A stretch of DNA of 32,000 nucleotides, from the NCBI GenBank assembly GCA_001790095.1, contig MGBH01000001.1, forward strand, positions 780,001-812,000, given 5' to 3'. The first letter of the stretch is position 1; each line of letters begins with the position of its first letter. Made by a program: the position numbers and the translations under genes. The notes under the pieces were generated by a model, which had not been told where the DNA came from, did not search any database, and saw nothing but the letters and a program-made list of their open reading frames with translations. Shown one piece after another: positions 1 through 22,384 of this stretch. Origin of the DNA: Candidatus Saccharimonadota bacterium (lineage in GTDB: Bacteria; Patescibacteriota; Microgenomatia; UBA1406; GWC2-37-13).

Positions 1-2123
1 AAACACCCATTGAGTCAGCGACCCAGATATTTGCATCGGTTCTTCCTTATCCTTTCCTTCCCCTATTAAAACGTACCTTGTTTGTCCATCCCAAGACCTA
101 TGCGTTTGAGATCTATCTTATCAATCAGCTTGTTTATTTTTACGTAACTACACCCGCAGTAAGTGAAACTTTGATCCAAAGTCTTGTAACATCCTCTTTT
201 CCCTCTTCAAAAATCACAAAAACGACTGACCCCATGGAAATTATCTTTAAATCAAAACATCTTTCAGTCGGCGAGGTAATCTTAAATTCATATTCATACC
301 TACCTATTAAAACTTACTTTGATTTTAAAGACGTTGATCCTTTATCAGCTCTGGTGGGATTTTTGTCCAAACAACCTCCTCATCTCAAAATGGCAGTGCA
401 GATCGTCGTCACACCCCCCTATTTTGCATGGCAAGACCGGGCAGTAAAAGCTGCAGGGCTTCAGGTATATGATGAAAACGCCTTGAAATATACGATGAAT
501 CCACAGAAGATGGTCATCATGAAAAAAGCCACATTTCAAGGGGGTAAAGTAGGTATCCGTCTTTTGGCTGGCACAAATACACCTCATTTTGATCCTATGC
601 CCTATGTGTCAAATCTTGCTGGTACATTTGGAAGTTTTTCGCTTGGTGAAGGTAATCAGTTTGTATTCAAACGCCCCATTTTTTTCAAAGATTGGCTTCT
701 CAAACGCGTAAAAGAAAGGTCTCTGTCTTACTTTGAACACAAAAATCAAATCCTAAACTCTCAAGAGCTAGCCACACTCTGGCATCCGCCAGGAATACTT
801 CTTGCTGGTATTAAAAATATTTCATGGGGTAAAACATTGATTGGAGAACCGCCAGAAAATCTGCCTGTTGCAGACCGTGCAACTGATGAAGAAAAAAAGT
901 CCATTAACTTCTTTGCCAAGACTGAGTTTCGTAATAAAGATACTATCTTTGGTATCAAAGATGCAGATCGTCGCAAACATGTATATATCATCGGGAAAAC
1001 AGGAGCGGGTAAATCTACTCTCATCGCCAATATGGCGATAGATGATATCAGGAAAGGTCGAGGTATTGGTATTGTTGATCCGCACGGTGATCTTTGTGAG
1101 ACCATACTTGACTTTATACCTAAACGTCGTCTTAACGATGTAGTATACCTTGAACCCTTTGATCTGGAACGGCCCTTTTCCCTCAATGTTCTTGAGATCA
1201 AAAATAAACAGCATAAAGACCTTATCTCATCAGGTATCGTATCTATTTTCAGCAAACTCTATAAAGACAGCTGGGGTCCACGACTTGAATATATCCTACG
1301 CAACGTCATCCTTACGCTTCTTGAGACACCGGGAAGTTCACTTCCTGATGTCTTATCTCTTTTAGCTCATGCTGATTATCGAAAAAAGGTGGTATCTGCA
1401 CTTACAGATCCTGTCCTTAAAAGTTTCTGGGAAAAAGAATTCGCCAAGATGCCCGACCGTTTGAAAGCCGAGGCTATCTCCCCTATCCAAAACAAAGTCG
1501 GACAGTTTGTAACCTCACGCATGATACGCAATATCGTTGGTAAACCAAAGTCATCCATAAATCTTGAAGAGATCATGAACTCAGGTAAAATCCTGCTGTT
1601 GAATCTGTCACAGGGCAAGCTTGGAGAAGATAATGCGGCTTTGCTTGGAGCTATGCTCATAACCCAAATACAGCTTGCTGCCATGAATAGAAGTTTCATG
1701 AAAGAGGAAGAACGTAAAGACTTTTTTCTTTATGTAGATGAGTTCCAGAATTTTGCAACAACATCATTTATCAAAATTTTGTCTGAAGCTCGCAAATACC
1801 GGCTTGCTCTTACTCTAACTAACCAGTATATCGAACAGCTTGAAGAAGATATCGAACGCGCAATATTTGGTAATGTAGGCACCCTTATTTCTTTTGTCGT
1901 TGGCGCCAGAGATGCGTATGCACTTTCTAAAGAATTCGGGGAGCTATATGAAGAAAGCGATTTGGTAGCACTTGGCAAATTTGAAACCGTCATGAAACTA
2001 TCAATTGACAATATGACAAGTGCTCCTTTTCCTGCCATCACTCTTCCCTTACCAGCGCTTCAAAACAATAATCGTGAAGCAATTATCCGCCTGTCAAAAG
2101 AAAAATACGGACGTAAAGTATAA
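1..2123 (+). CDS. Type IV secretion coupling-protein-like (TraD/VirD4/TraG-type) P-loop ATPase, 5' partial
   Basis: The frame is open from the window edge: codons from nt 3 have no stop before the track's TTG at 78. Walker A GKTGAGKST at nt 993-1019. Walker B-like FFLYVDEFQNF with D-E at 1737-1742. The downstream ARKYRLALTLTNQYIEQL block is typical of this ATPase class. Confidence 0.75.
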   Translation, partial: TPIESATQIFASVLPYPFLPLLKRTLFVHPKTYAFEIYLINQLVYFYVTTPAVSETLIQSLVTSSFPSSKITKTTDPMEIIFKSKHLSVGEVILNSYSYLPIKTYFDFKDVDPLSALVGFLSKQPPHLKMAVQIVVTPPYFAWQDRAVKAAGLQVYDENALKYTMNPQKMVIMKKATFQGGKVGIRLLAGTNTPHFDPMPYVSNLAGTFGSFSLGEGNQFVFKRPIFFKDWLLKRVKERSLSYFEHKNQILNSQELATLWHPPGILLAGIKNISWGKTLIGEPPENLPVADRATDEEKKSINFFAKTEFRNKDTIFGIKDADRRKHVYIIGKTGAGKSTLIANMAIDDIRKGRGIGIVDPHGDLCETILDFIPKRRLNDVVYLEPFDLERPFSLNVLEIKNKQHKDLISSGIVSIFSKLYKDSWGPRLEYILRNVILTLLETPGSSLPDVLSLLAHADYRKKVVSALTDPVLKSFWEKEFAKMPDRLKAEAISPIQNKVGQFVTSRMIRNIVGKPKSSINLEEIMNSGKILLLNLSQGKLGEDNAALLGAMLITQIQLAAMNRSFMKEEERKDFFLYVDEFQNFATTSFIKILSEARKYRLALTLTNQYIEQLEEDIERAIFGNVGTLISFVVGARDAYALSKEFGELYEESDLVALGKFETVMKLSIDNMTSAPFPAITLPLPALQNNNREAIIRLSKEKYGRKV

Positions 2124-2702: not shown

Positions 2703-3512
2703 TTACGTCGGTGTTGGAGATGGAGTTGAGGTCGGAGTAGAGGTTGGAGTTGAGATCGGAGTAGAGGTTGGAGTTGAGGTGGGGGCAGTTGTTGCGGTTG
2801 GAGCCGGCGTATTGGTTGGAGCAATCTGTGTACAGGTGGATAGAGTTACTTTTCCCACACAACCTGAACGCATCCAGTCTTGTGAACTACATGTCTTGCC
2901 TATTTTTTGACATATTTTTATACAATCAGTTTCTCCGCATACATATGCAGCAAGTGTAGGTAAGATGTAGGGCGTTGATGTTGGAGCCGGAGGCTTTACT
3001 ACCAGGGATGATGTTGGTCTAACAATCGGAACATTGCTTGCAACCGAAGGTGTTGGAAGTGTTGAGGCCAGAGTCGGGCTTATGGTTGGCGATAAAGCTT
3101 CGCTTCCTTTACTTTTTGTAGTAAAAGTCCATGGCACTCCTCCATTATCATATTTTTGATCACCAATACGGATCTGAAAATAATACGTTGAGTTTGGCGA
3201 AAGCAAGGTAAGATCTACGTTGTGTTTCTTTCCTTTTTGCGACTCAGGAGCAAAAAAATTCAAAGCGGTTGGAGACGTGCCATACTCTATCACTCCTTGA
3301 GTCTCCTGATCTGTGCTCCAGCCAATTTTGGCTGTATTTTGCGCGATTGAAGTGATCACAACCTCCCTTGGAGCGCTATCTGAAGCTTTGGTGAATACGC
3401 CCTGAACCAATCTAAAACCGATGAAAAGCAGTACCAACGCCAAAAGACCTCCAATGGATAGAGAAAGTATTTTAGGAAGTTTGGTTTTATCAAGCTTCAT
3501 TGCGAATTTCAT
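2703..3512 (-). CDS. Membrane-anchored fibronectin type III-like protein with Cys-rich segment and Thr/Ser/Pro repeat tail
   Basis: N-terminal TM segment LSLSIGGLLALVLLFIGF. FN3-like segment AKIGWSTDQETQGVIEYGTS...YYFQIRIG. C-terminal TPTSTPISTPTSTPTSTP repeat. Its ATG overlaps the upstream stop as ATGA. Confidence 0.6.
   Translation of the reverse strand: MKFAMKLDKTKLPKILSLSIGGLLALVLLFIGFRLVQGVFTKASDSAPREVVITSIAQNTAKIGWSTDQETQGVIEYGTSPTALNFFAPESQKGKKHNVDLTLLSPNSTYYFQIRIGDQKYDNGGVPWTFTTKSKGSEALSPTISPTLASTLPTPSVASNVPIVRPTSSLVVKPPAPTSTPYILPTLAAYVCGETDCIKICQKIGKTCSSQDWMRSGCVGKVTLSTCTQIAPTNTPAPTATTAPTSTPTSTPISTPTSTPTSTPSPTPT
2722..2785 (-). repeat. 24-bp in-frame tandem repeat encoding the TSTPTSTP tail
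   Basis: The unit ggagttgag(g/a)tcggagtagaggtt occurs at 2722-2745 and 2746-2769, with a partial copy at 2770-2785. Confidence 0.85.
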
Positions 3513-4183
3513 AATACCAATCGCAACATCAGACCCACCATTAATAATATAAGTCCTGGCGCAGCAAATTTAGACATATTTTCAACAATTCCGCTTTGTG
3601 GTAAAGATGCGGGGGAGGTGGGATTTGCGGGAGGAGTATATCCGGGAGATGAAGATGAAGCTCCTCCACCTACTCCTATATTGACGGCAAGTGAGGCATT
3701 CTTCGAACATTCAATGATATTGGTTGCGTTGACATCGTTTTTTATGATCTTTGAGGAGTTGCTAACATCGGTTCGACAGTCATAACTCAATGTAGTTGTA
3801 CCTGTTTTAAGTGCTTTAAACGTTACGGTCCCTATGACACCTGACCCTGTCTTATATGTCCCAGGGTCAACGATAAGACCGGTGATTGAGACTTTACCTG
3901 AGGTAATATTGTTGGTAACAGCTGGGAAAAAGCTTCCATTTGCAACCGTTTGCGCCTCTAAAAATGCGGGGTCATACACAAGCCAAATATCTGATGAGGT
4001 TATCTGGTCTGTCCCTGCATCAACGACTACATCTGCAGTAAAGGTCTCATTGGGCAAAGGGGAAGCTGTCGTCTTGTCAAAATTAAGATAAGCAGCATCA
4101 ACGTATGAAAAAAGGAAAGGAATAAGGAAAAAGAAAGTAAGAAGGCTCATTAGAAGTGATTTTTTCATTAGTTCATTATTCAT
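3509..4183 (-). CDS. Secreted cohesin-domain protein with C-terminal LPxSG-like sorting signal
   Basis: Signal peptide MKKSLLMSLLTFFFLIPFLFSYVDA. Cohesin-like beta-sandwich sequence (FTADVVVDAGTDQITSSDIWLVYDP...GVIGTVTFKALKTGTTTLSY). C-terminus LPQSG plus hydrophobic stretch plus R. Confidence 0.6.
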   Translation of the reverse strand: MNNELMKKSLLMSLLTFFFLIPFLFSYVDAAYLNFDKTTASPLPNETFTADVVVDAGTDQITSSDIWLVYDPAFLEAQTVANGSFFPAVTNNITSGKVSITGLIVDPGTYKTGSGVIGTVTFKALKTGTTTLSYDCRTDVSNSSKIIKNDVNATNIIECSKNASLAVNIGVGGGASSSSPGYTPPANPTSPASLPQSGIVENMSKFAAPGLILLMVGLMLRLVL

Positions 4184-4186
4184 TAT

Positions 4187-4834
4187 TTACTCATAAATTT
4201 CAAGCTGTAGTTTACCTGTGGTTGGATATGTCACTTGGGCTTTGTCATCAACTAATTTACTAGTCTCTTTACCTTGTGGAGTAAGTGTAAATACATACGT
4301 CCCTGGTTGCTTTGCTTGAAACTCAACTTCGATTAAAACCGTGTCCTCCCATGTGGTTGTGGAGTTATTTTGTAACGATTTGACTCCTGATACAGATAGA
4401 TGGGTTGGCCTGTTAAAAGGATATATTTTAAACTCAGGAAGCATAGATGTAGCTTTGATAAACTCAAACCCCTGCTTTTCATAACCGATTACTCCATCAT
4501 ACCCAACAATAGATTTTCCCTGAGATATTGCAGACAATATCAATGTAAATTGAGTATTCTTCTTATATCTTTTTTCATTATCCTTTGTGGAGAGTCTCAT
4601 AGAGCCTAAGGTGGGATAAGGAATCAAGGTTGGAGTGATAGATGGAAAAAGTACTGGAGAAACCATTATGTCTGCTTGCTTCTGGATGGAATTTTTTTTC
4701 CGCACACCAGACCACACCATTATGCCCGCAAGCACTATGAGTATTATGAAAAGAAAGATAATAACAACTTTGTTTTTACTTTTCTTTGGGGACTCTATTG
4801 TTGTTTGAGGAAGGGGGGTATAATGCTGTTCCAT
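4187..4834 (-). CDS. N-terminally anchored cohesin-like beta-sandwich protein (hypothetical)
   Basis: TM segment VVIIFLFIILIVLAGIMVWSGV. The C-terminal region resembles the neighbouring cohesin-like modules (FTLILSAISQGKSIVGYDGVIGYEK...IEVEFQAKQPGTYVFTL). The ATG at 4834 is preceded by GAGGAG-N7. The alternative ATG at 4852 overlaps the upstream gene by 14 nt. Confidence 0.45.
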   Translation of the reverse strand: MEQHYTPLPQTTIESPKKSKNKVVIIFLFIILIVLAGIMVWSGVRKKNSIQKQADIMVSPVLFPSITPTLIPYPTLGSMRLSTKDNEKRYKKNTQFTLILSAISQGKSIVGYDGVIGYEKQGFEFIKATSMLPEFKIYPFNRPTHLSVSGVKSLQNNSTTTWEDTVLIEVEFQAKQPGTYVFTLTPQGKETSKLVDDKAQVTYPTTGKLQLEIYE

Positions 4835-4838
4835 AGTA

Positions 4839-6578
4839 TTACTCCTCATCATATTTAATTGATAATGAAGCTAGAACTAGTGAGAAATCTTGACTGTCAA
4901 TAACACCATCATAGTTTAAATCCCCAATCTGAAGCTCTGATGAATTAGTGCTTTGTAAATGTGTACGAATATACCCCGTATCATATGCGTCAATGATGCC
5001 GTTTTGCGCGCCATTTTCAGGAAGGTCTCCAACCAATAGCAATATCTTGGAAAAGTCAACCGAGTTGTCACCTGCCTTAATAGTGATCTTTCCATCACCG
5101 CAATGATAGGTACCCCCTGCCGCCTCAGATGCTGCGGCATCACAGATTTTTTTCTGTAGATGTTTGGGACCCTTGACATACACAACATACCCATCTCCTG
5201 GCGGTACTGAAAAATCTGCGGTTCCCGACCACACTCCATCCGCCCCAACAGTAAATTTAGCTGTCTGATAGGCTGTAGATGATGATAACAACCTACCTCC
5301 TAGCTTTACTTTTACGTCAATTGAATCAGACGTCCGTGGTTTGGCTGTAACTCCCTGGAGCTTGATTTTCATAACCAGTTTAACTGCGGTTGCACCAGGA
5401 ATCGAACTAGAAGATCCTCCTCCACCACCACCTCCTCCAGGCGGAGGACCAGGTGGAACTTTTGTATTGATTGCCATACCATAATAGTATCCCAGTTTAT
5501 TACTTGCATCTCCCCAGGCATTGGGTTGATCAAGTGATATTGAGGTAACTGCTGTTTGAATATTTTTAAACTCCCCATTGAGTACATATTCCTTTCCGCC
5601 TCCTGCAAAACTGACCCAGTCAACGTAAAGTTCACTCCCTTCCCCAGCAACGACTCGCACACGATAGTCCTTGTTGTTACCATCAGCCGGGATCACAATG
5701 GGAATTGATTTTGTCTCAAAATCAGGATTCTGAGGAAGTGGGATTATACCTAGGGAATCGTTCTCTTTTTTACCTCCACCGCAGTCAGGATTGGCACAGA
5801 GTAAGTCTACAAACGCTCCATTACCTTTAGAAATTACAGTATATGCACGTACAGACAGCGTATAGCTACCGCTTGGTACTCTCATTTTTTGAATAAAGTG
5901 GGCGGCCGTTGATAATACGCTATACGGACTGAGTACTTTTGTATAATCTGTTCCGGCACAACAAGCCATCTTAGTACCGGATGATACCACACATGCAGCG
6001 TCAGTATAGGTCCCGGGATTATATCCTGCCCTGCAGGCAAAGATCGTCTCACCATTGACATAGGTCCGTTGAGTACAGTTTGTCAAACCTCCACCGCTCA
6101 CACTTAGACAATCAAGATCAGCTCCATAACCGCATTTTACCAATACATCAGCTCCGGGCATAACCACATATGGCTCAATCCCTCCTGTCTTAAATTGATA
6201 CTGATTACAGGTTGGGGTAGGTATGGGGGTTGAAGATGGTTTTGTTCCACCGCCTCCACCACCATCATCGTCATCATCTTCATCACCTATACATAAATAA
6301 CATTTATCTCCAGAGACATCAGGACAAGAACCCCCGTCAATTGGAACACAAACTCCGCCCTCCATTTTACATGATCCCTTACTACCATTTGTACAAACAG
6401 CGCTTGGGCAACCATTACCCTGGACACAAGTTACCCCATCAAGTCCTACCCTCCATGGATCTTCACATTCATTAGCTCCACAAGGTACAGGATCAGCGGC
6501 AAATACATTATGTTCTTTATATACAGGAAGAAGAGCAAAAACAATTAGACTTATTATGCATAATATGAGTTTCTTCAT
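4839..6578 (-). CDS. Secreted Cys-rich protein with CBM-like beta-sandwich and C-terminal dockerin
   Basis: Signal peptide MKKLILCIISLIVFALLPV at the ATG at 6578; the track's upstream extension to 6671 overlaps the previous gene. C-terminal duplicated dockerin segments GDLPENGAQNGIIDAYDTGYI and GDLNYDGVIDSQDFSLVLASL. Poly-D/G and poly-G/S runs are present. Confidence 0.65.
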   Translation of the reverse strand: MKKLILCIISLIVFALLPVYKEHNVFAADPVPCGANECEDPWRVGLDGVTCVQGNGCPSAVCTNGSKGSCKMEGGVCVPIDGGSCPDVSGDKCYLCIGDEDDDDDGGGGGGTKPSSTPIPTPTCNQYQFKTGGIEPYVVMPGADVLVKCGYGADLDCLSVSGGGLTNCTQRTYVNGETIFACRAGYNPGTYTDAACVVSSGTKMACCAGTDYTKVLSPYSVLSTAAHFIQKMRVPSGSYTLSVRAYTVISKGNGAFVDLLCANPDCGGGKKENDSLGIIPLPQNPDFETKSIPIVIPADGNNKDYRVRVVAGEGSELYVDWVSFAGGGKEYVLNGEFKNIQTAVTSISLDQPNAWGDASNKLGYYYGMAINTKVPPGPPPGGGGGGGGSSSSIPGATAVKLVMKIKLQGVTAKPRTSDSIDVKVKLGGRLLSSSTAYQTAKFTVGADGVWSGTADFSVPPGDGYVVYVKGPKHLQKKICDAAASEAAGGTYHCGDGKITIKAGDNSVDFSKILLLVGDLPENGAQNGIIDAYDTGYIRTHLQSTNSSELQIGDLNYDGVIDSQDFSLVLASLSIKYDEE

Positions 6579-8173
6579 TGTCTTGATGAACTGTTTATAT
6601 ATAATGCCCCGTCTTTTCCTTTTGTCGTATCGATCGTACCATAGATAGACCCCGCCATATCCATCTCCCAATAGTCAGGATATTTGCGTGGACTGCTTAT
6701 CTTAGAAACCGTATTAAAATGATAGTCCTGCAATTTTTCACCACCCCATATGTCAGTAAGTGACACGTAGTCAAAATCAGCTTCTGATCCATCTTCAACA
6801 AATATGCGTACTACATATTTCTTTTTGTCGCCGGCATCGCTAATATGTATGGTTACTTCCTGACGCTGAAATGTGGTGGAAAGGGGGAAATGAGGAGTTT
6901 GACCAATAACATCGTTGAGTTTTTTACCATCTCCGCAATCGCTTTCTCCACAGGCTAAAACAACCAGAACTTCTCTACCACGGCTGGTATAAGTAAGTGC
7001 TCCCCCGGACAAAACATAGTCACCTTTTTCCAGATTAACAACCTGTTCATATCTGGTTGGAGCCTGATCAAAGGTGGTTGAATTGATGTGTAATATGTCG
7101 CCATTGCTTTCGATCTGTTCTCCAGGAATCACGCTGCTACTACTTCCCCCAGAACTCGTGCTTGAAGAAGAACTTGTTGTACCAACCGTTACCGTATAAG
7201 AATTTACAGTCGTTAAAATATTTTGCGGGCTGTCGTTAAAAGTATAGACAGTACAATTATCTTTTATGTATGCTAAATTTGCTGTGCCATCTACAGAGGC
7301 CGTAAACTTAACTGTTGCCACTTTTAGATTCCCTGATATAGCTGTTTTTCTGGCTGCATTGATGACGACTGTACCGGTGGTACTTGGTACAACCGGCGGA
7401 GTCACTCCATTTATAGCTGTTGAATCAAATGTGTTGGTATTAATAGTGGTTGATTTATGGGCTAAAATATTTGCCGGGTATGAAAAATATACACCCGTTG
7501 ATGATATCTGTTGATTGTTCGTATCAACCATTATGTCTATACTCACCTCTTCTCCAACCGAATATGTCTGTTTTGAAGATGCAAATGATAAAGAAACTCC
7601 CCCCCCGCTTGAATCGCTTGATGAAGATGAACTTGATGAGTTGTCATTTATGGTAAGTGGTACTTTGACAAAATTTGTCACCTGAAGTGTGACTGCTCCC
7701 CATGAAAACGTCAAGGGAAACGTCGAGCCTGATTTCATTTTAAATGCAATATCGGCAATAAGTTGATTGGCGGGAGTAAAAGGTGAACCTGTCTTTGTGC
7801 CAACTATATGTATAGTATCCGTACCTACAAGCGTAACAGACTGCTTTAGTACATCAGGAGCGAGCGTAACATTTGCATCGACTCCACCTGTGTTTTTTAA
7901 CTCAAGTTTTGAAGCATCGAATTTTGCCTCTATGTCAAAAGAGTATAGTTCGGTCGCAACACTGTTTGGATTTATCTTGACTGCTATCTTAATTCCGTTA
8001 TCGCCTTGCATGGGAGGATTATCAACCGTTGCAAACAATAACTCAGGTGTACCAAGGGGTGCTGCTTTTGAACGTTTACGCAGCTGTTGATAAAACACGA
8101 CAAATCCAACCACTGAAAAGACAACAAGAAGTAGTGCAATAAATGCAATTCTTAATTTTTTTATCTTGGTCAT
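6575..8173 (-). CDS. Membrane-anchored protein with two cohesin-like modules and a C-terminal CBM-like domain
   Basis: TM segment IAFIALLLVVFSVVGFVVF. Two cohesin-like modules separated by poly-Ser linkers. The C-terminal domain is paralogous to the one in 4839-6578 (LACGESDCGDGKKLNDVIG...YVVRIFVEDGSEADFDYVS). Confidence 0.6.
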   Translation of the reverse strand: MTKIKKLRIAFIALLLVVFSVVGFVVFYQQLRKRSKAAPLGTPELLFATVDNPPMQGDNGIKIAVKINPNSVATELYSFDIEAKFDASKLELKNTGGVDANVTLAPDVLKQSVTLVGTDTIHIVGTKTGSPFTPANQLIADIAFKMKSGSTFPLTFSWGAVTLQVTNFVKVPLTINDNSSSSSSSSDSSGGGVSLSFASSKQTYSVGEEVSIDIMVDTNNQQISSTGVYFSYPANILAHKSTTINTNTFDSTAINGVTPPVVPSTTGTVVINAARKTAISGNLKVATVKFTASVDGTANLAYIKDNCTVYTFNDSPQNILTTVNSYTVTVGTTSSSSSTSSGGSSSSVIPGEQIESNGDILHINSTTFDQAPTRYEQVVNLEKGDYVLSGGALTYTSRGREVLVVLACGESDCGDGKKLNDVIGQTPHFPLSTTFQRQEVTIHISDAGDKKKYVVRIFVEDGSEADFDYVSLTDIWGGEKLQDYHFNTVSKISSPRKYPDYWEMDMAGSIYGTIDTTKGKDGALYINSSSRQ

Positions 8174-8178
8174 ATTAG

Positions 8179-9972
8179 TTAGTTTCCTACCCTCCCAAAA
8201 TTTTTACCCAGTATACCAAGGTCAAAGATATCAATCTTTCCATCAAGATTAAAGTCAGCGTTTGGCTCACTTGGCATTGGTACCACCATATAACCTACTA
8301 CTATTTTCTGCAGGTCTGCTACATCTATCTTGTTGTAGCTTCCTGATGGTATCGTACCATTGGTGCCATCGTTAAATCCATCGCTATCTCCTCCATAAAG
8401 CGGACTTAAGTGTGAATCCTTTAAGCTTCCACATTCATTATCCGGCACATTTTTTGCACAATCAATAGTCTGACCGACGTGTAAAGTGACAGTAAACGCA
8501 CGACGGATGGTATGCAACTGCTTAATAAGTACAGTATATTGAATTCCGCCCACAACATCAAGTTCGACCGGAGTAAGGGTTTTAAAAGTATCTGTCCCGG
8601 TTATACGTTGTAGGCTCGTCATTGCTCTGATTGAAGAGTTGCCGCTCACCTGTATTCTCACGTTGGAAACAGAACCAATACTTGTTGGAATATCAGGCAT
8701 ACGTACTTTAAATAAAAGGTTTGCTTTTGTAGGCGATCCTGTTGGGATAGGGGTCGCTGTTGGAAAATTATAAGGAGTAGCTGTAGGAACACGAGTGACA
8801 GTTGGAGTAGGTGGTGTTGTGGGAACACGAGTGACAGTTGGAGTAGGTGGTGTTGTGGGAACACGAGTGACAGTTGGAGTAGGTACTCCACACGAAATAA
8901 TTCCATTTACAACAGTTGCCTGACATTCTCTCGTATTATTATTTTCATTGTTTTCTCTGACCGTATTGAATTTATCAACCCAAACATATATTAAATGCTG
9001 TCCTTCAGTTAAAGATACGGTTTTTGAATAAGTAAAAGTTCCTCCAGGATTTAATGCTACTCCAAAATAGGTACTGAATCTATCTGGTGTTCTAATTGTA
9101 GGAGGATAATCAACCGGATCAACATATCCATGGAGATAGAAGTTTCTAGCAAGACTTTGTCCGTTATTTCTTACTTTGACACTGATAGTGTAGTTAGATG
9201 ATCCTTGAGAAGAGGTGACAATCGGATCAATGGTCAGATCGGGCAAAGATTCTGGAGTAGGAGTAGGAGGTGATGTTGGGACACGAGTGGCAGTTGGAGT
9301 AGGTGGTGTTGTGGTAAGAGTTGGAGTAATGTTACGAATAGGTATAATAATATTTGCATTGATTGGAGTTAACGAAAAAATATTTGTATTTATATTGGGT
9401 CCAACGATCATCGAAGAGCCTGTGTTGATGCGCAGTGTCGTATTTGAAAAAGCAGTACTCATCGTTGTACGAGTTTTAAAACGAAGCCGTACGGTTGCAG
9501 TTCCTTTTAAACTAGAGTTTGCCCGTTTTGCTACCATAACCAGCCTGTCCAGCTTTCTTGACCCATCAGGCCTTGTACTATATTGAAGCCGCACTGTCTC
9601 ATCAAACGATTTGACAGTTGGGTTTTCCAAGGGAAAAGTGGCATCGGGTAATATAAAATCAAGGGCGTCTTCAGGATTTTCAAAAACAAGATCAAGGGCT
9701 GAAATTTTGTTGCTGTTATTTGCCGTCATAGTAATCCCTATAGCAAAAACCGCTCCTTTTTCAATTATCCCCACTGTATTGTTTGAGAGGGAAAGTGTCA
9801 CGATACCTGATCCACTCGCCTTTGTTTTAACACCCATGTTATTATAGATAACATAGGCGAAAAATCCAATGCTTGCGAAAAGAACGACAAAAATGAGGAT
9901 TCGTTTCGATAAAATACGTAGATCCATATTTATCATTAATAATAATGAAAGAAAGCTATCTTTGCAAGACAT
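8179..9972 (-). CDS. Surface protein: cohesin-like module, CARDB-like domain, Thr/Pro linkers, C-terminal dockerin
   Basis: CARDB-like segment PDLTIDPIVTSS..YTISVKVRNNGQSLARNFYLHGYVD...VWVDKFNTVRENNENNN. Triple PTPTVTRVPTTP linker. Dockerin-like segments GGDSDGFNDGTNG..IDVADLQKIVVGY and ADFNLDGKIDIFDLGILGKNFG. Its ATG directly abuts the PMT stop as TAAATG. Confidence 0.65.
   Translation of the reverse strand: MSCKDSFLSLLLMINMDLRILSKRILIFVVLFASIGFFAYVIYNNMGVKTKASGSGIVTLSLSNNTVGIIEKGAVFAIGITMTANNSNKISALDLVFENPEDALDFILPDATFPLENPTVKSFDETVRLQYSTRPDGSRKLDRLVMVAKRANSSLKGTATVRLRFKTRTTMSTAFSNTTLRINTGSSMIVGPNINTNIFSLTPINANIIIPIRNITPTLTTTPPTPTATRVPTSPPTPTPESLPDLTIDPIVTSSQGSSNYTISVKVRNNGQSLARNFYLHGYVDPVDYPPTIRTPDRFSTYFGVALNPGGTFTYSKTVSLTEGQHLIYVWVDKFNTVRENNENNNTRECQATVVNGIISCGVPTPTVTRVPTTPPTPTVTRVPTTPPTPTVTRVPTATPYNFPTATPIPTGSPTKANLLFKVRMPDIPTSIGSVSNVRIQVSGNSSIRAMTSLQRITGTDTFKTLTPVELDVVGGIQYTVLIKQLHTIRRAFTVTLHVGQTIDCAKNVPDNECGSLKDSHLSPLYGGDSDGFNDGTNGTIPSGSYNKIDVADLQKIVVGYMVVPMPSEPNADFNLDGKIDIFDLGILGKNFGRVGN
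8786..8884 (-). repeat. 36-bp in-frame tandem repeat (2.75 copies) encoding the PTPTVTRVPTTP linker
   Basis: The unit ggaacacgagtgacagttggagtaggtggtgttgtg occurs at 8786-8821, 8822-8857 and 8858-8884 (partial). A diverged copy lies at about 9281-9316. Confidence 0.9.
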
Positions 9973-11418
9973 TTATACCGGCTCCAAACCCCACCAAGGC
10001 AACCAATTCCGAAGCTGAAAAGCAGACTTAGACAAAGGATAATAATAGGTAAGCGGACTAAAGAAAATATATACTGCTACTACAAATCCAAAAATGATCA
10101 AAACTGCTACATAAAATTTCGTATTGTTCTTTTTCAATTTCTCCTCAAACAGATACTCCAGCATCATAAATGCAAGTATCAAACTTAAAATAAGCGGAAT
10201 AAAGTAATGATACAGATACATCACTCTTTCCAGACTCAGCATTGCACCCATGTAGATGATATAAAGTAAAACAAACGATAAAATGCAAAAAAATAATCGT
10301 TTATTTTTGATAGGGGTTTTAAATGCCAAGTGGGATACGACCAAGTTGACAGCAAAGAATATTCCCATAATTCCAATGAGCCAAATCATCGGATTACCCT
10401 GTAAATATAAATATCTTACACTCTCCCCATCTCTTTCCCAACGATAATTGATTGATTTGTTGCCAAATGGCCAAGCCACAGGAAGACTACCATTTTCTCC
10501 TGGCTTACATGCATCGTATTTTGGTACTCCTTTTTCATAATGGGAGATAAATCCCAAGTGCTCGCCCAATTGAAGAGGAAAAGTCGCAGGGTTTGATGAT
10601 CGTCCTCGCTTCAATAAGGCTCTATAGACATCTGATGCCTGAGAATATCTTTCCTCAAGAGGAGATTTGGCAAGTATGAAATGCAGACAATACACATTGA
10701 CAAAAACAATAATCGATGCAAGGACAAAAAGTGCAATTTTCACAATGATCTCACTCCATCGTATTGTTTTATGATACTCCCACACAAGAAGAATGATTAG
10801 TATCAAACCCAGTATCGCGCCGTTTAACTTAATCGAAATGACCGCCCCATACAATAATCCCAAAACTACATATGATGGAAAAGTGTTCTTATGCAAGGAA
10901 GAGCTTACCAACCAAAAAAAATAAAGTAAAAACAAAAGTATGAAAAATATCTGCGTTCCCTCAAGCATCGCCCCCCTGCTATGGACAATGATGGCGTTTT
11001 CAAAAAGATATACAGATGTAAATAAAAATGATAATGCAGGCTTATGCGACAATATATATAAAATGAGAAAAAAAAGAAGGGTACTTAGGAAAGCAAAAAA
11101 TGTCGGAAAAAATCTAACCCCTTTAAATGAATACCCTTGAGGAATGTCTTTAATATAGTCGGCCGTGAGAAAAGAAGATGTGTCAATTTGATCGTTCGGA
11201 TGTAATATATATTCTCCAAGAGCAATAAACATCTTACCGAGCGGGGGGTGTGGCTCCATAAAAAAAACTCCGTTCAAGTATTTTTGAGCAGATGCGATGT
11301 GATAGTTTTCATCCCAAAAAAGATTGGGAGGGTAAGAATAATTACGAAAATAAGTAAAATATGAAATGATGAGAATAAGAAAACTAAAAAGAATCAGCTG
11401 GGTTTTCTTATGCATCAT
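9973..11418 (-). CDS. PMT-family (GT39) protein O-mannosyltransferase-like polytopic membrane glycosyltransferase
   Basis: Loop-1 motif LFWDENYHIASAQKYL...FFMEPHPPLGKMFIALG matches the PMT D-E and HPPLGK signature. It is followed by many TM helices. Confidence 0.75.
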   Translation of the reverse strand: MMHKKTQLILFSFLILIISYFTYFRNYSYPPNLFWDENYHIASAQKYLNGVFFMEPHPPLGKMFIALGEYILHPNDQIDTSSFLTADYIKDIPQGYSFKGVRFFPTFFAFLSTLLFFLILYILSHKPALSFLFTSVYLFENAIIVHSRGAMLEGTQIFFILLFLLYFFWLVSSSLHKNTFPSYVVLGLLYGAVISIKLNGAILGLILIILLVWEYHKTIRWSEIIVKIALFVLASIIVFVNVYCLHFILAKSPLEERYSQASDVYRALLKRGRSSNPATFPLQLGEHLGFISHYEKGVPKYDACKPGENGSLPVAWPFGNKSINYRWERDGESVRYLYLQGNPMIWLIGIMGIFFAVNLVVSHLAFKTPIKNKRLFFCILSFVLLYIIYMGAMLSLERVMYLYHYFIPLILSLILAFMMLEYLFEEKLKKNNTKFYVAVLIIFGFVVAVYIFFSPLTYYYPLSKSAFQLRNWLPWWGLEPV

Positions 11419-11456: not shown

Positions 11457-11753
11457 TCAAATAACTCTCAGTAGTCTAAAGAGCGCAAAGCTTATGAAGT
11501 AGAAAAGCACGATCTGGAAAAAAGGAAGATATAGAGTCAAGAAAATTGTAACAATCGCAAGGATAAAAAAAGCTTCATTGTGGATAGCCGGTAATAGTCC
11601 CTTGGTAAGCAACATCAGAATAATGAGGGTGAGAAGGATGCGGGGGTTAAACCAAATAAGTGGCCAACCGAAAAACATGGCAACTCCTATAAGGATAGCC
11701 GCCAGTATAAGAAATATTTCTTTTGTATCAAAATAAAATGGACCGAGATACAT
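11457..11753 (-). CDS. Small polytopic membrane protein (hypothetical)
   Basis: About 98 aa, almost entirely hydrophobic helices. The track's TTG start at 11789 is the TTGACA -35 box, and the ATG at 11753 (MYLGPFYF) fits the promoter geometry. Confidence 0.5.
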   Translation of the reverse strand: MYLGPFYFDTKEIFLILAAILIGVAMFFGWPLIWFNPRILLTLIILMLLTKGLLPAIHNEAFFILAIVTIFLTLYLPFFQIVLFYFISFALFRLLRVI

Positions 11754-11760
11754 ATTATTA

Positions 11761-11789
11761 AATTTAGAATGTTTGAACTTAAATGTCAA
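11761..11789 (-). promoter_or_regulatory. Internal promoter-like element
   Basis: On the minus strand: TTGACA (11789-11784), N17, TAAATT (11766-11761), N7, ATG at 11753. Confidence 0.4.
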
Positions 11790-12192: not shown

Positions 12193-14178
12193 TTATTCGT
12201 TTGAGTTAATGGTTAAATCGATGGTCGAATTTCCTAGACTTGTGTCACCTTCTATTATTTGTGATGGTAACATCATTGATGTTCCCCCCCCTGTCATATA
12301 AGTAAGTTGTGCTTGAATCCTTTTTCCAGCCAAACTTGTACACCACGGGATAGTAAATGTTTTCTCCGTAGCTGAGCCTATATTTTTTACATCTACGTTC
12401 GTATAGGCAGTACTGTAGACTGTTTCATTATCGCCTCGTAAATCATTTCGAAACAGATCTACTCTTATTGAGTTTTCTTGAATGTTATTCCGATAAAGAG
12501 AACAGAAAAAACCATTGTATATACAATCATTTTGAGGAACACTACCTTGCATCCTACCTGTATAGACAATATTCAGATTTACATCCATATTGTAACCCGT
12601 ACTGTTATCCCGAATATCTGCAGAACTACAACCGCCTGGGGTATTTACGACAGTAGGATTTGCACCGCCAGAGCCAACAGCTACAATCGGTAAATAGGCC
12701 CTATAGGTCGCCGATGTAGTTGGAACTACTTTCCAGTATAAATCAATATAACCACGATCATAGTCTGCTGGCATATTGGGGATTGTTCCGCTCACCGTAT
12801 TTCCATCAGTATAGGTACCACCGGTATGACATGTAACGTTGTTTTCGCATTTTGAATATTGACATGCATAACCTGTCGGAGCAGTACAAGTTGCTGTATA
12901 TGAATCTCCTACTACAAAACTAGAGACACCATATGGAGCGTTGTGTTGTGATAGACTAAATGTCTGTTGGTCTACGCCATTATTTTTTACATTAATTTGA
13001 ACTGCGGAAGGTAGAGTAACTCCATCTTCAAGAATCAACCTTCCTTGAACCATCCCTGGTGGAGCTGTATCTCCAATAAGAGTCACCACTATTCCTCCGT
13101 CTAAAGTACAACTGCTTATTCTTTGATAGTTTGGTGATGATTTCCATTGACCATTTTCGTCTAAAACATATACATAACAATCACTGGGTATGCTTGTACC
13201 GTTAGGATATGTATGGGTTAGAGTAAATGCTCCATATGTCGTCCTTGTCTCGCTAATCTGTTGATAGTCTGCATTGGTGATACCAACTCGCCAATTATGG
13301 GGATTACCCGAAAGAGTACCTGTAATATTATATGATCTTGAAGCAGTAACTGGACAACACCATCCATTATTACATGTCCCGACAGCACATGTGTCTCCAC
13401 TACATGCATCACCTATATATTCTCCCCCTCCATCCGTACATGGAGATGCTGGAGCCGAAGATGCCTCAACATATTTACAACATTTTCCATAGTCCTCACC
13501 ATCTATACACCATCCTTTTTCAGTTCTGCTGTAATCACACTCCCTATTTATAACACAGTCGTTTTCTCTACAGGTATCTGAGATGGCGGGATGTGTGGGA
13601 GTAGGAGCACTTGTAGGTGATGGAGTCACAATCGGAATACAACATCGATATTCATCCTCACCTCCTGGCTTATCAATACAATATCCACTAACCCTTCCCA
13701 CAAGACAATCTCCACTGTTAGAGGTACAATTGCCCGGTCGTGAGCAATCTAATTCATCTGGCGACAATGTGGGTACTAGTGTTAGTCCTGTTTGAGTCGG
13801 TGCCGGAACTTCAGTTGGAGTTGGGGTTGAAGTTGGAATCCCTGTATAACGTTTGATTGATCTACACATGTTGCGTGGGCCTTCATCTCCCCATTGTTTT
13901 TTCTCTCCGTCATAATAATAATTATTGCCTTCATAATGAAGACATCCATACGAAAATTCAGTTGAACTTATTGCGGTACAATTAAGACAACCAGATTCTT
14001 CATCATCACATGTGGTAAAACACCATTTTGTTGGGTCATATACTATACCAGCAGCGCGCGATCCTGTCGTCTTTTTGTCTTTAAGAAATACTGACGACAC
14101 TGCAGCAGTAATGGTGATAACAAGAAGAGTACCTATAGTAAGAATAGTTGCGATCTCCGCTCGTTCGTGTTGTCTCAT
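12193..14178 (-). CDS. Membrane-anchored/secreted Cys-rich modular protein (hypothetical)
   Basis: N-terminal TM segment ATILTIGTLLVITITAAVSSVFL. Three Cys-rich modules each end in CC and are separated by Thr/Pro linkers. A large C-terminal beta-rich region follows. Confidence 0.6.
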   Translation of the reverse strand: MRQHERAEIATILTIGTLLVITITAAVSSVFLKDKKTTGSRAAGIVYDPTKWCFTTCDDEESGCLNCTAISSTEFSYGCLHYEGNNYYYDGEKKQWGDEGPRNMCRSIKRYTGIPTSTPTPTEVPAPTQTGLTLVPTLSPDELDCSRPGNCTSNSGDCLVGRVSGYCIDKPGGEDEYRCCIPIVTPSPTSAPTPTHPAISDTCRENDCVINRECDYSRTEKGWCIDGEDYGKCCKYVEASSAPASPCTDGGGEYIGDACSGDTCAVGTCNNGWCCPVTASRSYNITGTLSGNPHNWRVGITNADYQQISETRTTYGAFTLTHTYPNGTSIPSDCYVYVLDENGQWKSSPNYQRISSCTLDGGIVVTLIGDTAPPGMVQGRLILEDGVTLPSAVQINVKNNGVDQQTFSLSQHNAPYGVSSFVVGDSYTATCTAPTGYACQYSKCENNVTCHTGGTYTDGNTVSGTIPNMPADYDRGYIDLYWKVVPTTSATYRAYLPIVAVGSGGANPTVVNTPGGCSSADIRDNSTGYNMDVNLNIVYTGRMQGSVPQNDCIYNGFFCSLYRNNIQENSIRVDLFRNDLRGDNETVYSTAYTNVDVKNIGSATEKTFTIPWCTSLAGKRIQAQLTYMTGGGTSMMLPSQIIEGDTSLGNSTIDLTINSNE

Positions 14179-14523: not shown

Positions 14524-14904
14524 CTACTTTGTAATCCATCCTCCGATATTTTTTATTATGTTCCAAATAAACCTAAATGGAGAAGTGAGAGAAGACCATG
14601 TCTGTTTTGCAATCTGGGTTATTTGAGTAAGGGAGATTTGCTTTCCTTGTTTTACAACGGGTGTATCATATCCCGTTGCCTCATCTCCAGGTCCTGCTAT
14701 AGGTTCAGGCACCGCTTGACTACTAGCTTTTGCTTCCTCAAGCATCTGCATGGCTTGTTGCATTGCCTGTTGCTCTGCCAATGAAGACGCTTGATCTGGA
14801 ACATCATGAGGTGGTTGTTCAACAGGAAGAGCCTCCTGGATCTCTGAGGGTCGATCTTGTTCAGATTGCGGAGGTAATGAAAAAGTCTCTGCTGTGTCTA
14901 CCAT
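14524..14904 (-). CDS. Acidic Q/E/P-rich 126-aa protein with hydrophobic/amphipathic C-terminus (hypothetical), last gene of the cassette operon
   Basis: The ORF starts 15 nt after the P1 stop. It has a low-complexity acidic N-terminus and a C-terminus FRFIWNIIKNIGGWITK. Confidence 0.45.
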   Translation of the reverse strand: MVDTAETFSLPPQSEQDRPSEIQEALPVEQPPHDVPDQASSLAEQQAMQQAMQMLEEAKASSQAVPEPIAGPGDEATGYDTPVVKQGKQISLTQITQIAKQTWSSLTSPFRFIWNIIKNIGGWITK

Positions 14905-14919
14905 ATATAGAGTATTATA

Positions 14920-17058
14920 CTATGGAATCTTTCGCAGTATATTCGTTGCGTGGGTCGCAACCCAGTTTATTCCTTTCTCACTAACTCTGCTTGTTGCACC
15001 AAGAGCAGCTGAAGGAACCGCTCCAACATTAGCAAGAGTGTTTATTACCCTTGCCGACTGTGTAGCAAGATTAAATGTTTGACCTGCATTCAAGGCAAAA
15101 CCTCCTCCCAAGGTAAACACTCCTGCTCCAATTCCACCTGCAACAGCCAAGACTTTCATAAGACGCTTTGACCCTTGCGTCCAGTCTTTACCTACGATAG
15201 CTTTTAGTTTTTCAGCTGACAGTGCTCCTCCATCAAGAAGATCATATTCGCCAAGCATCTTCGCGGCTGCTTCAATCTCTTTTTCACGACCTGCTATGGC
15301 TTTATCAAAAAAACCAGAATCTGGACCGTAAGCATGACGCAAAAACTCTGCTTCACCTTTTTTCAGTTTCATGCGGTCAAAATAATACCCTCTTGCCCAT
15401 GCATATCCCAACATATCTGGTACTTTTTCCGCTGCAATACTATCATATAGAGTATCAGGAAGTTGATTCAATACATCACGCAGTGCCAAGGGCGGAGTAC
15501 CCTTACCCAACCCCATATCTTCAAACATTCTCTTTATTTCTTTTCCATACTCTACCGGCATACTATACCTTTCACGATAAATTCGTTCAAGCATGCCTCG
15601 TGCAAGTTTTCTGGGACTCTGTGACAGTAAATCTTTGTGCATAAAATCTTTAATGGCACGATCATCCCAACCAGCTACTTTGCCGTTTTTATACTTGAGG
15701 AATGATATTTTTAGATATTTGTCCAACATCTCTTTCGCCTTATCTTCACGTGCTTTTTTCTCATCTGCTTCTTTTTGTTTTCCCTCTGCCTTCATAGCTT
15801 CATCAGCCTGTACAGCCCGATCTGCTGCAGTTAGTGTGATCTCATTCCAATACCGTTTCATTTCCTCAGATAAAGCTGTATCCATTTTACGTCTATATTT
15901 GTCCGCATATTGACTCCGTTCACCTTCAAGCTGTAACATCTCTCTTTCGGCTTGATTTATGGTCACCAACTCCGCATCCAAACTACCTTTTTTAGTCGTA
16001 GCCTCACTATAATCTTTCATGTCTTGAAAACGTTGCTCAAGACTTGTATCAGTCAATTCCCCATCTAAATAGGTAAGAGGACTTAATGAATTTACTAACG
16101 AATCATACTTTGCTCTTCTGTCTGCATAAACATCTGCGACACCCTTTACTGGGGGCTTATTTATATCCGGATAGCGCGTTTCATAAGCTGTAATGTCTGC
16201 ATTAAGTCTTGTCAAACACCTTTGCACTTCAGTTTGAGTCATTTTAATTGGCCTGTATGTCTCATCTGAGATTTTCGCAACTTGAGCATTTAGTCTGTTA
16301 TACCAATAATTTGCTTTATTTAATTCATCGGTTGATGTGAATTTTCCTTTTACTGTTGTTATTGTTTTATCCGCATCATCTTTTTCTTTTTGTTTTTCAG
16401 CCTTGTTTTTTATTTTTTCACGTCTGTTTTCTATCTCTGATGCTTTTACAGCATCTTCTGCCGGCATTGATAATGCTGACAAATTCTTTGCAATCCGTTT
16501 GCCCAACTTATCACTGCTTAAAAAAGTTGCAACAAGTTCGTTTATAGCTTTCCGTTCATCCGGAGTAACTACTACTCCCCCCTTACCTGAGACAAACTGT
16601 TTCACTTGATCGATCGTCAACCTTCCACCACTCACCAAAGAGATTGATTCACAAAATCCAGGAAGATTTACCATAATATTTACCATTTCTCCTCTTTCCT
16701 CAGGTGTCATGGATAAGAATCCTTCGTTGTTAAGAAGTTTGTCATAGACTCCATATCGTCTCATAAGTCGATCATGTCTTTTTAGCAAATCAGCCTTTTT
16801 CCCAGGATCTGTCTCTGCATCAACGCGTTTTTTTTCATCGTCCAAAACTCGTCGCATCTGATCAAAATTCACCATTGTATCCTCTTCATTCTCAGCTAGT
16901 TCAGCTTCAAACATAGATTTGCCACCCAGCTTTTTTTGGCGTTCTGCTAGTGCTGCTATTTCTTTATTGAGTATAGGAGCTCTTCCTGCCTCAGGAGCAA
17001 GCGCTGCTGCGATATGTTTTATCGCGATTGATTCTTTTGATGTAGTTGTATCTGTCAT
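14920..17058 (-). CDS. Cassette large protein P1: 712-aa charged helical protein with C-terminal Gly/Ala-rich hydrophobic region (unknown family)
   Basis: Long ORF with no signal peptide and an E/K/R/D-rich body. C-terminus LAVAGGIGAGVFTLGGGFALNAG...VGAVPSAALGA. The ATG lies 1 nt after the S1 stop. Confidence 0.7.
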   Translation of the reverse strand: MTDTTTSKESIAIKHIAAALAPEAGRAPILNKEIAALAERQKKLGGKSMFEAELAENEEDTMVNFDQMRRVLDDEKKRVDAETDPGKKADLLKRHDRLMRRYGVYDKLLNNEGFLSMTPEERGEMVNIMVNLPGFCESISLVSGGRLTIDQVKQFVSGKGGVVVTPDERKAINELVATFLSSDKLGKRIAKNLSALSMPAEDAVKASEIENRREKIKNKAEKQKEKDDADKTITTVKGKFTSTDELNKANYWYNRLNAQVAKISDETYRPIKMTQTEVQRCLTRLNADITAYETRYPDINKPPVKGVADVYADRRAKYDSLVNSLSPLTYLDGELTDTSLEQRFQDMKDYSEATTKKGSLDAELVTINQAEREMLQLEGERSQYADKYRRKMDTALSEEMKRYWNEITLTAADRAVQADEAMKAEGKQKEADEKKAREDKAKEMLDKYLKISFLKYKNGKVAGWDDRAIKDFMHKDLLSQSPRKLARGMLERIYRERYSMPVEYGKEIKRMFEDMGLGKGTPPLALRDVLNQLPDTLYDSIAAEKVPDMLGYAWARGYYFDRMKLKKGEAEFLRHAYGPDSGFFDKAIAGREKEIEAAAKMLGEYDLLDGGALSAEKLKAIVGKDWTQGSKRLMKVLAVAGGIGAGVFTLGGGFALNAGQTFNLATQSARVINTLANVGAVPSAALGATSRVSEKGINWVATHATNILRKIP

Positions 17059-17059
17059 A

Positions 17060-17356: not shown

Positions 17357-17361
17357 AAATA

Positions 17362-19560: not shown

Positions 19561-19563
19561 ATG

Positions 19564-19872: not shown

Positions 19873-19878
19873 ATTATA

Positions 19879-19907: not shown

Positions 19908-19923
19908 GAGAATATTTGTTGCC

Positions 19924-22065: not shown

Positions 22066-22068
22066 ATG

Positions 22069-22374: not shown

Positions 22375-22384
22375 GTAATATTTT

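Follow-up and report, generated by a model that had tools for sequence, protein, structure and literature searches.

What would an ultra-small bacterium of the candidate phyla radiation (CPR) do with cohesins and dockerins encoded side by side? The question is raised by six consecutive minus-strand genes, here called p6 to p1 in the order in which they are read, in a 32,000-nucleotide stretch of contig MGBH01000001.1 (the window). A preliminary description, made from the sequence alone, had read this region as a cohesin-dockerin surface assembly, and the open reading frames (ORFs) and motifs that it quoted were found where it had placed them. Domain, profile, fold and synteny evidence bears out its central claim that consecutive genes with cohesin and dockerin modules lie in one operon, and we estimate at roughly 0.6 the probability that this operon encodes a cell-anchored cohesin-dockerin surface complex displaying non-enzymatic binding modules. 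Judging by sequence relatives, it is probably the surface operon of an ultra-small groundwater CPR bacterium (Candidatus Roizmanbacteria / Patescibacteria). All its homologues came from metagenome-assembled genomes (MAGs) of Candidatus Roizmanbacteria or Patescibacteria, and a protein identical to p5 is encoded on a groundwater-metagenome contig (SRR2177951, PRJNA292723).

Cohesin and dockerin modules of the operon

All genes from position 14178 down to 2126 of the window are on the minus strand, and this co-directional run reaches upstream of p6, past a gene for a protein O-mannosyltransferase (PMT), to about 14178. The stop codon of the PMT gene lies directly against the p6 ATG (TAAATG), p6 and p5 are 5 nucleotides (nt) apart, the stop of p5 and the start of p4 share nucleotides (ATGA), p4 and p3 lie 4 nt apart with the Shine-Dalgarno sequence GAGGAG ahead of the ATG at 4834, and p3 is followed after 3 nt by p2, which in turn overlaps p1 (ATGA). 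Because all these junctions overlap or leave at most 5 nt, genes p6 to p1 and the PMT gene upstream of them are almost certainly co-translated as one predicted operon. The length of p4, 579 amino acids (aa), was also obtained by a gene caller on an identical contig. A scan for consensus promoters and terminators gave results no better than those with shuffled sequence.

The cohesin of p2 was recognised directly, with 34.8 bits against the gathering threshold of 24.1 bits of the Pfam Cohesin family (PF00963); its orthologues score 27.8–34.6 bits, three of the six above threshold. The window proteins p3 and p5 have no Pfam match of their own, and single-sequence searches of Pfam, NCBIfam and the PDB with p3, p5 and the N-terminal module of p6 (p6N) returned nothing significant. 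The p5 orthologues (49–58% identical), however, all match Pfam Cohesin in two stretches (10 of 10, with 30.9–52.7 bits and E values from 3.5e-7 to 6.9e-14); the best stretch falls in module 1 (residues ~49–151) in four of them (P0009, P0010, P0011 and P0013) and in module 2 (~195–324) in six. An AlphaFold2 (AF2) model of p5, based on 14 orthologues, contains three beta domains (residues 43–165, 192–332 and 360–480). Module 1 appears in it as a beta-sandwich with a predicted local distance difference test score (pLDDT) of 74–90, and Foldseek matched the model to solved cohesins in the PDB, at template modelling scores (TM-scores) of up to 0.80 and a root-mean-square deviation (rmsd) of 2.1 Å, the type II cohesin dyad 3L8Q being also among the matches. 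Module 2 aligns with the p2 cohesin (hhalign 96.4%, E 1e-9) and has weak phmmer matches to cohesin 3 of Ruminococcus flavefaciens ScaB. Both modules thus belong to the Cohesin family by their orthologues and by fold, and module 2 also by hhalign. The module of p3, probably a divergent cohesin, is supported by five of its six orthologues, which match Pfam Cohesin with E values from 3.6e-7 to 9e-4 (only one above threshold), and by its alignment with p5 module 2 (hhalign 68%, E 4.8e-5).

The fifth module, p6N, is cohesin-like in its predicted fold. Its AF2 model is confident (pLDDT 89.5, predicted TM-score 0.85), and its top 50 Foldseek matches in the PDB are mostly cohesins, at TM-scores of only 0.5–0.65 and an rmsd of 5–6 Å. 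The top match is the CLIPPER domain of an adhesin, and CLIPPER and integrin domains score equal to cohesins. Profiles of three or seven sequences gave no significant hhalign match between p6N and the other cohesins (best 31% over 48 columns). The p6N family is rare, with 9 matches among 1.84 billion representatives, and one distant member has a weak match to Pfam Cohesin (E 0.012). Of the five cohesin-like modules originally proposed, that of p2 therefore stands by Pfam and those of p5 (two) and p3 through their orthologues, which makes four cohesins supported by sequence, and that of p6 stands by its predicted fold only.

The operon encodes two probable dockerins, at the ends of p4 and p6. 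We looked for two tandem F-hand segments of ~22 residues, with a 12-residue calcium-binding loop (D/N at positions 1, 3, 5, 9 and 12) and a helix. Against Pfam Dockerin_1 (PF00404, threshold 22.9 bits), the tail of p4 scores 20.4 bits (E 5.8e-4) and that of p6 only 14.2 bits, both below threshold; all four p4 orthologues match the family (19.3–25.4 bits, one of them, at 25.4, above threshold), and p6 orthologues match it across both repeats with E values of 0.0086–0.083. Profiles of the C-terminal ~75 residues of p4 (A2) and p6 (A3), run against all PDB sequences, retrieved almost only dockerins. They are carried by 15 of the 18 matches of the p4 profile, the best being R. flavefaciens 5LXV_B (6e-4), and by all 17 matches of the p6 profile, led by the GH84C dockerin of Clostridium perfringens (2JNK/2OZN, E 1.8e-4). 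Both proteins thus end in the duplicated dockerin-like segments that had been seen in them, with atypical first loops. The p4 tail has a degenerate first loop (NGAQNGIIDAYD) and a canonical second segment (DLNYDGVIDSQD). The second segment of p6 is also canonical (DFNLDGKIDIFDLGILGKNFG, with the loop DFNLDGKIDIFD), and its first segment consists of GDSDG, an insert of 14 aa and IDVADLQKIV. Because the p6 orthologue of the related locus L004 has this loop without the insert (GDSDGGGLIDAAD / GDSDGGGLIDAADL), the first segment of the window p6 reads as a dockerin repeat with a loop insertion.

A conserved beta-rich module (X) precedes both dockerins, as in the X-dockerin dyads of types II and III, and two such dyads, 4WI0 and 4U3S, align to the p4 profile from the strand ahead of the first loop. 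The X module of p6 is kept in all orthologues that occupy the p6 slot; its similarity to that of p4 is weak (hhalign 10% over 75 columns). In P0031, an X-plus-dockerin unit of the p4 type stands downstream of a p6N-like module. Two related loci, L005 and L006, encode an additional Cys-rich protein (at 7530–8654 and 3–632, respectively) with a third type of dockerin (GDANCD...ADFNSNG...), which in L005 exceeds the Dockerin_1 threshold (23.4 bits). Of three loci with the p6N module in their p6-slot protein, two encode this dockerin type, and module and dockerin may be a cognate pair.

The gene order PMT, p6 slot, p5, p4, p3, p2, p1 and YtxH recurs in L001, L002, L005, L007 and L008; L004 has the same order without PMT, and L006 is truncated by the start of its contig. 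The cluster is conserved in a Roizmanbacteria clade that is narrow, since relatives of p5 occur in only five GTDB species representatives. Within this clade, both dockerin types are conserved while the passengers vary. The p6 slot encodes cohesin-like and CARDB domains in the window, cohesin-like and Cys-rich domains in L005 and L006, one or two LamG_3 (lectin-like) domains in L002, L004, L007 and L017, and Cys-rich/FN3-like regions in L001 and L008, every variant retaining the same X-dockerin tail. Mean identity is 0.78 for the p4 dockerin, 0.77 for the p2 cohesin, 0.67 for the p6 dockerin and 0.62 for p5 module 1; the matched levels of the first two, and those of the last two, hint weakly at how the complex may be wired. 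Co-variation was uninformative about pairing, as cohesin and dockerin substitutions across the 7–8 closely related loci simply follow phylogeny. Three assemblies that contain a Roizmanbacteria-type cluster (L010, L011 and L012) are titled "uncultured Gammaproteobacteria bacterium", which looks like a taxonomic mislabel of MAGs.

Anchors, passengers and linkers

All six proteins have Sec-type N-termini, in the form of classical signal peptides in p2 and p4 and of a transmembrane (TM) anchor in p3. In p1, p5 and p6, a hydrophobic segment of ~20 residues is followed ~8 residues on by a [ST]-K-A-[SA] motif (at about residues 40–46 in p1, as TKASD, 32–42 in p5 and 47–53 in p6, as KTKAS), which is also found in P0029–P0031 and which in p5 forms part of a sequence, RxxSKAAPxGT, invariant in 14 orthologues. 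As the motif agrees with the -3/-1 rule for signal peptidase I, these three proteins may be released from the membrane by cleavage rather than anchored in it; alternatively, the motif may be a lineage-specific processing signal. An ordinary signal peptide replaces the whole N-terminus of the p6 orthologues in L001 and L008. Of the N-terminal TM anchors first attributed to several of the proteins, that of p3 is plain, whereas those of p1, p5 and p6 may instead be cleaved signal peptides. The C-terminus of p2 consists of LPQSG, IVENMSKFAA, PGLILLMVGLML, R and LVL. The putative sortase-type signal reported there is indeed present and conserved, as LP[QE][ST]G plus a hydrophobic stretch plus R, with LPQTG, LPQSG or LPESG in the orthologues.

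The passengers named at the outset as CARDB and FN3 were both recovered. In p6, the hydrophobic segment and KTKAS are followed by the cohesin-like module, a Pro/Thr (PT) linker, a CARDB domain (45 bits against a Pfam threshold of 22.7), PT repeats, the X beta-sandwich and the dockerin. In p1, the hydrophobic segment and TKASD precede an FN3-type domain, a PT linker, a module with six cysteines and a PT tail. The FN3-type domain matches Pur_ac_phosph_N (37.3 bits against 30; Pfam fn3 gives 18.8, below 25) and, with a mean identity of 0.79, no other domain of the cluster is as conserved. After its classical signal peptide, p4 has a Cys-rich region and a domain (J) that is also found at the C-terminus of p5 (hhalign 99.6%, E 1.6e-23), followed by the X module and the dockerin. 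The J domain had been called similar to carbohydrate-binding modules (CBMs); the domain is real, and the label was dropped, as J has no Pfam family and no PDB relative by sequence or profile. No recognised CBM was found on the operon proteins, nor, in agreement with the first inspection as regards hydrolases, did Pfam and NCBIfam reveal a glycoside hydrolase (GH) or other enzyme domain in any protein of the cohesin-dockerin cluster. The only GH of the window is a signal-less GH37 trehalase outside the operon (28791–30212).

Every operon protein has long Pro/Thr/Ser linkers. That of p6 contains a 36-bp tandem repeat (2.9 copies with 98% matches in Tandem Repeats Finder, TRF), of which near-identical variants in the databases have 3, 4 or 6 units (4 in P0019 and 6 in P0018); because such variants differ in repeat copy number, the length of this linker is polymorphic in the population. 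A homologue search with the whole of p6 was swamped by the low-complexity words of the linker and returned near-identical variants only. Linkers rich in Pro, Thr and Ser are the type of substrate of bacterial PMTs, and are also found glycosylated in cellulosomes. The PMT gene product has multiple hydrophobic segments and matches both Pfam PMT (PF02366, 84.2 bits) and PMT_4TMC (PF16192, 75.8 bits), by which it is a bona fide protein of glycosyltransferase family 39 (GT39) with the corresponding predicted function. By analogy with known bacterial PMT substrates and with glycosylated cellulosomal linkers, it is reasonable to suppose that this enzyme O-mannosylates the linkers. It resembles the Sec-coupled GT39 PMT of Actinobacteria in its PMT + PMT_4TMC architecture and in its position beside genes for secreted proteins with Pro/Thr/Ser linkers. 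Its linkage to the cluster is not constant, however, L004 having no PMT at this position.

A proposed surface complex and its alternatives

In the complex that we favour, p2 would be attached to the wall through its LPQSG signal and p3 kept in the membrane by its N-terminal helix, both presenting a single cohesin as an anchor point, and p5 would contribute another two cohesins. The p4 and p6 dockerins would plug, in a calcium-dependent manner, into the cohesins of p2, p3 and p5 and display the passengers (the Cys-rich region and J domain of p4, the CARDB domain of p6) on long Pro/Thr/Ser-rich linkers, which the upstream GT39 enzyme would O-mannosylate during export. Such pairing has the indirect support of the conserved operon and of the matched conservation levels. 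Since p6 has both a cohesin-like module and a dockerin, it could in addition serve as an adaptor for further extension of the assembly, and the species-variable protein of its slot would be the specificity element. The most likely role would be adhesion to a host cell, polymer or particle, because the displayed modules are binding-type domains and not enzymes. The preliminary description had gone further and proposed a self-assembling adhesion scaffold rather than a cellulosome. The surface assembly has the support of domains, profiles, fold and synteny, but its second half does not follow, because an operon free of enzymes does not prove a non-cellulosomal function: scaffoldin clusters such as sca of R. 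flavefaciens are also devoid of them. The GT39 gene upstream, the combination of X module and dockerin and the exchange of passengers in the p6 slot had escaped that description.

Assemblies of this type are already known; what is unusual here is the lineage and the layout. We found no description of a cohesin-dockerin operon in CPR/Patescibacteria in the full-text literature, where the one related mention is of an essential dockerin-domain protein in a saccharibacterium (PMC10633639). By analogy, the architecture is closest to that of the R. flavefaciens sca cluster (scaC-scaA-scaB-cttA-scaE), which encodes several cohesin proteins and no enzymes, and in which ScaE (a cohesin plus LPXTG, anchored by sortase) holds CttA (binding modules plus a dockerin) and the scaffoldins, with ScaC as an adaptor (PMC2930009). 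In this comparison, p2 resembles ScaE by its single cohesin and putative C-terminal LPXTG-type signal, p4 resembles CttA, a binding protein without enzyme function that ends in a dockerin, p6 resembles ScaC by its one cohesin(-like) module and dockerin, and p5 resembles the multi-cohesin scaffoldins but lacks a dockerin. X-module-plus-dockerin dyads and R. flavefaciens modules are also the nearest PDB sequence matches of the operon modules, whose sequence identity to known modules is about 10–20%. Unlike the sca cluster, the operon belongs to a CPR bacterium with a tiny genome instead of a fibrolytic Firmicute, has only 4–5 cohesins, of which an additional one is membrane-anchored by an N-terminal helix (p3), includes a dedicated GT39 mannosyltransferase, and is without known CBMs or enzyme partners.

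Non-cellulosomal pairs offer a second comparison. Those of C. perfringens (GH84C/GH33 toxins) and Archaeoglobus fulgidus (2XDH) function outside plant cell-wall degradation, and cohesins of both species were among our Foldseek matches. However, these modules belong to enzymes (sialidase, hyaluronidase-like GH84) or to isolated proteins, not to a dedicated non-enzymatic operon that includes its own anchors. Among CPR bacteria, the saccharibacterium Southlakia epibionticum has an envelope protein with a dockerin domain, SEML1_0315, which is essential for epibiotic growth by transposon sequencing (Tn-seq) and for which the authors of that study proposed a role in the interaction with host-cell glycans (PMC10633639). 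It is comparable to p4 and p6 in domain type, as a surface protein of a CPR bacterium that bears a dockerin; it comes from another CPR class, and no cohesin partner or operon has been described for it (PMC10633639).

A more specific version of the surface complex, which we put forward tentatively and regard as possible rather than expected, is that it serves an episymbiotic CPR bacterium as a modular device for recognising its host or target, with p2, p3 and p5 as a conserved, glycosylated platform, fixed to the envelope, for interchangeable X-dockerin "warhead" proteins. As sister species have refitted the p6 slot with different passengers, target specificity would evolve by cassette exchange. 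If so, the exchange would resemble that of phage receptor-binding proteins, and Patescibacteria would have an adhesin system other than their type IV pili, as well as a cohesin partner for their so far orphan dockerin proteins. Recognition of hosts and substrates by CPR/Patescibacteria is little understood beyond type IV pili, and the locus is a compact, conserved and tractable candidate, with five small cohesin modules and two dockerins that can be tested pairwise. It would also provide a naturally occurring case of a cohesin-dockerin system reduced to a minimum, free of enzymes and equipped with a glycosyltransferase of its own.

Several observations weigh against a cell-anchored complex of this kind. 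The window's own p3, p5 and p6 modules are sub-threshold in Pfam, their support coming only through orthologues or fold, and the first calcium-binding loop is atypical in both dockerins. The C-terminal signal of p2 has Ser at the Thr position, a 10-residue spacer and a single basic residue; p2 and its orthologues score 15.8–16.0 bits (p2 itself 15.9) with Pfam Gram_pos_anchor, below the threshold of 20, and no NCBIfam LPXTG model matches, the L001 orthologue giving only a weak EF0750_LPXTG score of 22 bits against 47. A crude scan for the TLxTC signature detected no sortase gene in the window or in ~254 kb of related Roizmanbacteria loci; a complete Microgenomates genome has been reported to encode a sortase (PMC7143001). 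The model does not account for p1, which has neither cohesin nor dockerin. Finally, the 4–5 cohesins of the operon outnumber its two dockerins, so that some partners may be encoded elsewhere and might be enzymes.

This last imbalance is also the starting point of the strongest alternative, in which the operon would be the scaffoldin (sca-like) cluster of an enzyme complex, comparable to a mini-cellulosome or amylosome. Dockerin-bearing GHs or peptidases encoded elsewhere would dock on the surplus cohesins, and J, LamG and CARDB would bind the polysaccharide substrate. The enzyme-free R. flavefaciens sca cluster (PMC2930009), which the architecture mirrors, is a precedent for such a division, p5 module 2 and the p4 dockerin find their nearest PDB sequence matches in modules of R. 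flavefaciens, and Microgenomates were reported to have more GHs than other CPR lineages (PMC7143001). However, at the level of the locus, neither the 32-kb window nor 10 kb on either side of seven related loci yielded a dockerin-bearing carbohydrate-active or other enzyme, and CPR genomes are small (<1 Mb, PMC12857230; the longest related contig has 649 kb). A profile search with the p6 dockerin returned short fragments only, which did not reveal passenger domains, and a metagenome scan with the same profile found mostly generic dockerins of unrelated organisms, only L015–L017 being of the true p6 type; these searches lend the enzyme complex no support and are no real test of it. On balance, we consider it unlikely.

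We give still less credit to the possibility that the modules are generic Ig-like and EF-hand-like parts of envelope or S-layer-type proteins, with dockerins that bind calcium for stability only. Modules of the dockerin type for which no cohesin partner is known are widespread among organisms that do not produce cellulosomes, and the sub-threshold scores in this genome, the atypical first calcium loops and the similarity of the p6N fold to integrin and CLIPPER adhesin domains would all be in line with it. Nevertheless, cohesins and dockerins occur together here in a translationally coupled operon conserved across species, the dockerin tails are strongly conserved beside variable passengers, and the profile matches are almost exclusively true dockerins and cohesins with solved complexes, which makes a merely structural role improbable. 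Least probable is that the complex is an adhesin accessory of a neighbouring machinery related to type IV secretion systems (T4SSs), like the LPXTG adhesins (PrgB) by which Gram-positive conjugation systems make cell-cell contact: a gene for a VirD4/TrwB-like type IV coupling protein (T4CP), 81–95% identical between species, does adjoin the cluster in the window, L001, L005 and L007, Gram-positive T4SSs depend on adhesins anchored by sortase (PMC12857230) and none of the PrgB type was found in Patescibacteria (PMC12102498), but this gene lies on the other strand and runs convergently to the cluster, the flanks of L002, L004 and L006 have no T4CP, no VirB4, VirB6, VirB8 or other T4SS component was recognised in the window, and most patescibacterial T4CPs are orphans far from virB4, the T4CP gene being not essential for epibiotic growth (PMC12102498).

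Feature coordinates and neighbouring genes

Table 1. Genes and modules of the cohesin-dockerin operon and genes adjoining it, in window coordinates.
Feature	Position	Strand	Basis
PMT gene, GT39 protein O-mannosyltransferase-like (PMT + PMT_4TMC)	9973..11418	-	Pfam
p6, 597 aa, adaptor-like protein	8179..9972	-	
p6 N-terminal cohesin-like beta-sandwich (residues 52-210)	9343..9819	-	AF2 + Foldseek
p6 CARDB domain	8929..9243	-	Pfam
p6 linker tandem repeat, 36-bp unit encoding PTPTVTRVPTTP	8782..8884	-	TRF
p6 X module, beta-rich, ahead of dockerin	8413..8730	-	alignment
p6 dockerin	8182..8391	-	PDB profile search, L004 comparison
p5, 532 aa, two cohesins + C-terminal J domain, no dockerin	6575..8173	-	
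p5 cohesin module 1	7679..8047	-	orthologue Pfam match, AF2 beta-sandwich
p5 cohesin module 2	7178..7600	-	orthologue Pfam match, hhalign
p5 J beta-sandwich domain	6719..7111	-	hhalign to p4 J
p4, 579 aa, ends in X module + dockerin	4839..6578	-	
p4 J domain	5469..5936	-	hhalign to p5 J
p4 X module (KLQG...KGPKHLQKK), ahead of dockerin	5064..5396	-	alignment
p4 dockerin	4842..5042	-	Pfam Dockerin_1, PDB profile search
p3, 215 aa, TM anchor + linker + divergent cohesin	4187..4834	-	
p3 N-terminal TM anchor	4706-4768	-	
p3 cohesin, divergent	4190-4612	-	orthologue Pfam match, hhalign
p2, 224 aa, signal peptide + cohesin + Ser/Pro linker + LPQSG signal	3509..4183	-	
p2 cohesin	3674-4093	-	Pfam Cohesin
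p2 LPQSG sorting signal, putative	3512-3604	-	alignment
p1, 269 aa, FN3-type domain + 6-Cys module	2703..3512	-	
p1 FN3-type domain	3108-3377	-	Pfam Pur_ac_phosph_N
p1 6-Cys module	2832-2939	-	
VirD4/TrwB-like T4CP	78-2123	+	

Other genes of the window surround those listed in Table 1. Always just upstream of the PMT/cohesin cluster is a minus-strand gene (11457–11789) for a small polytopic membrane protein without Pfam family (a 110-aa ORF, ~98 aa in relatives), which is 89–93% identical across Roizmanbacteria loci, compared with only ~45–65% for its neighbour genes. The co-directional run is headed by a gene (12193–14178, minus strand) for a secreted Cys-rich protein of 661 aa with PT linkers and repeated C-x-C motifs, without a Pfam match or a dockerin, of which only the N-terminus is conserved in relatives. 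Farther upstream (14524–22413, minus strand) lie three tandem gene pairs, each encoding a small protein (102–126 aa) and then a large charged one (712–732 aa). Two of the large proteins have a C-terminal hydrophobic segment; the proteins of this region are without Pfam matches and show weak paralogy (28% over 116 aa; 26% over 88 aa), and relatives of them occur upstream of the cluster in other loci. Finally, an IS200-like Y1 transposase gene (26965–27462, minus strand, 47.8 bits) adjoins a sugar-metabolism group (27515–31344) made up of a hexokinase-like gene, the signal-less GH37 trehalase (157.6 bits) and a 368-aa ORF without a Pfam match; the transposase and these sugar-metabolism genes are unrelated to the surface operon.

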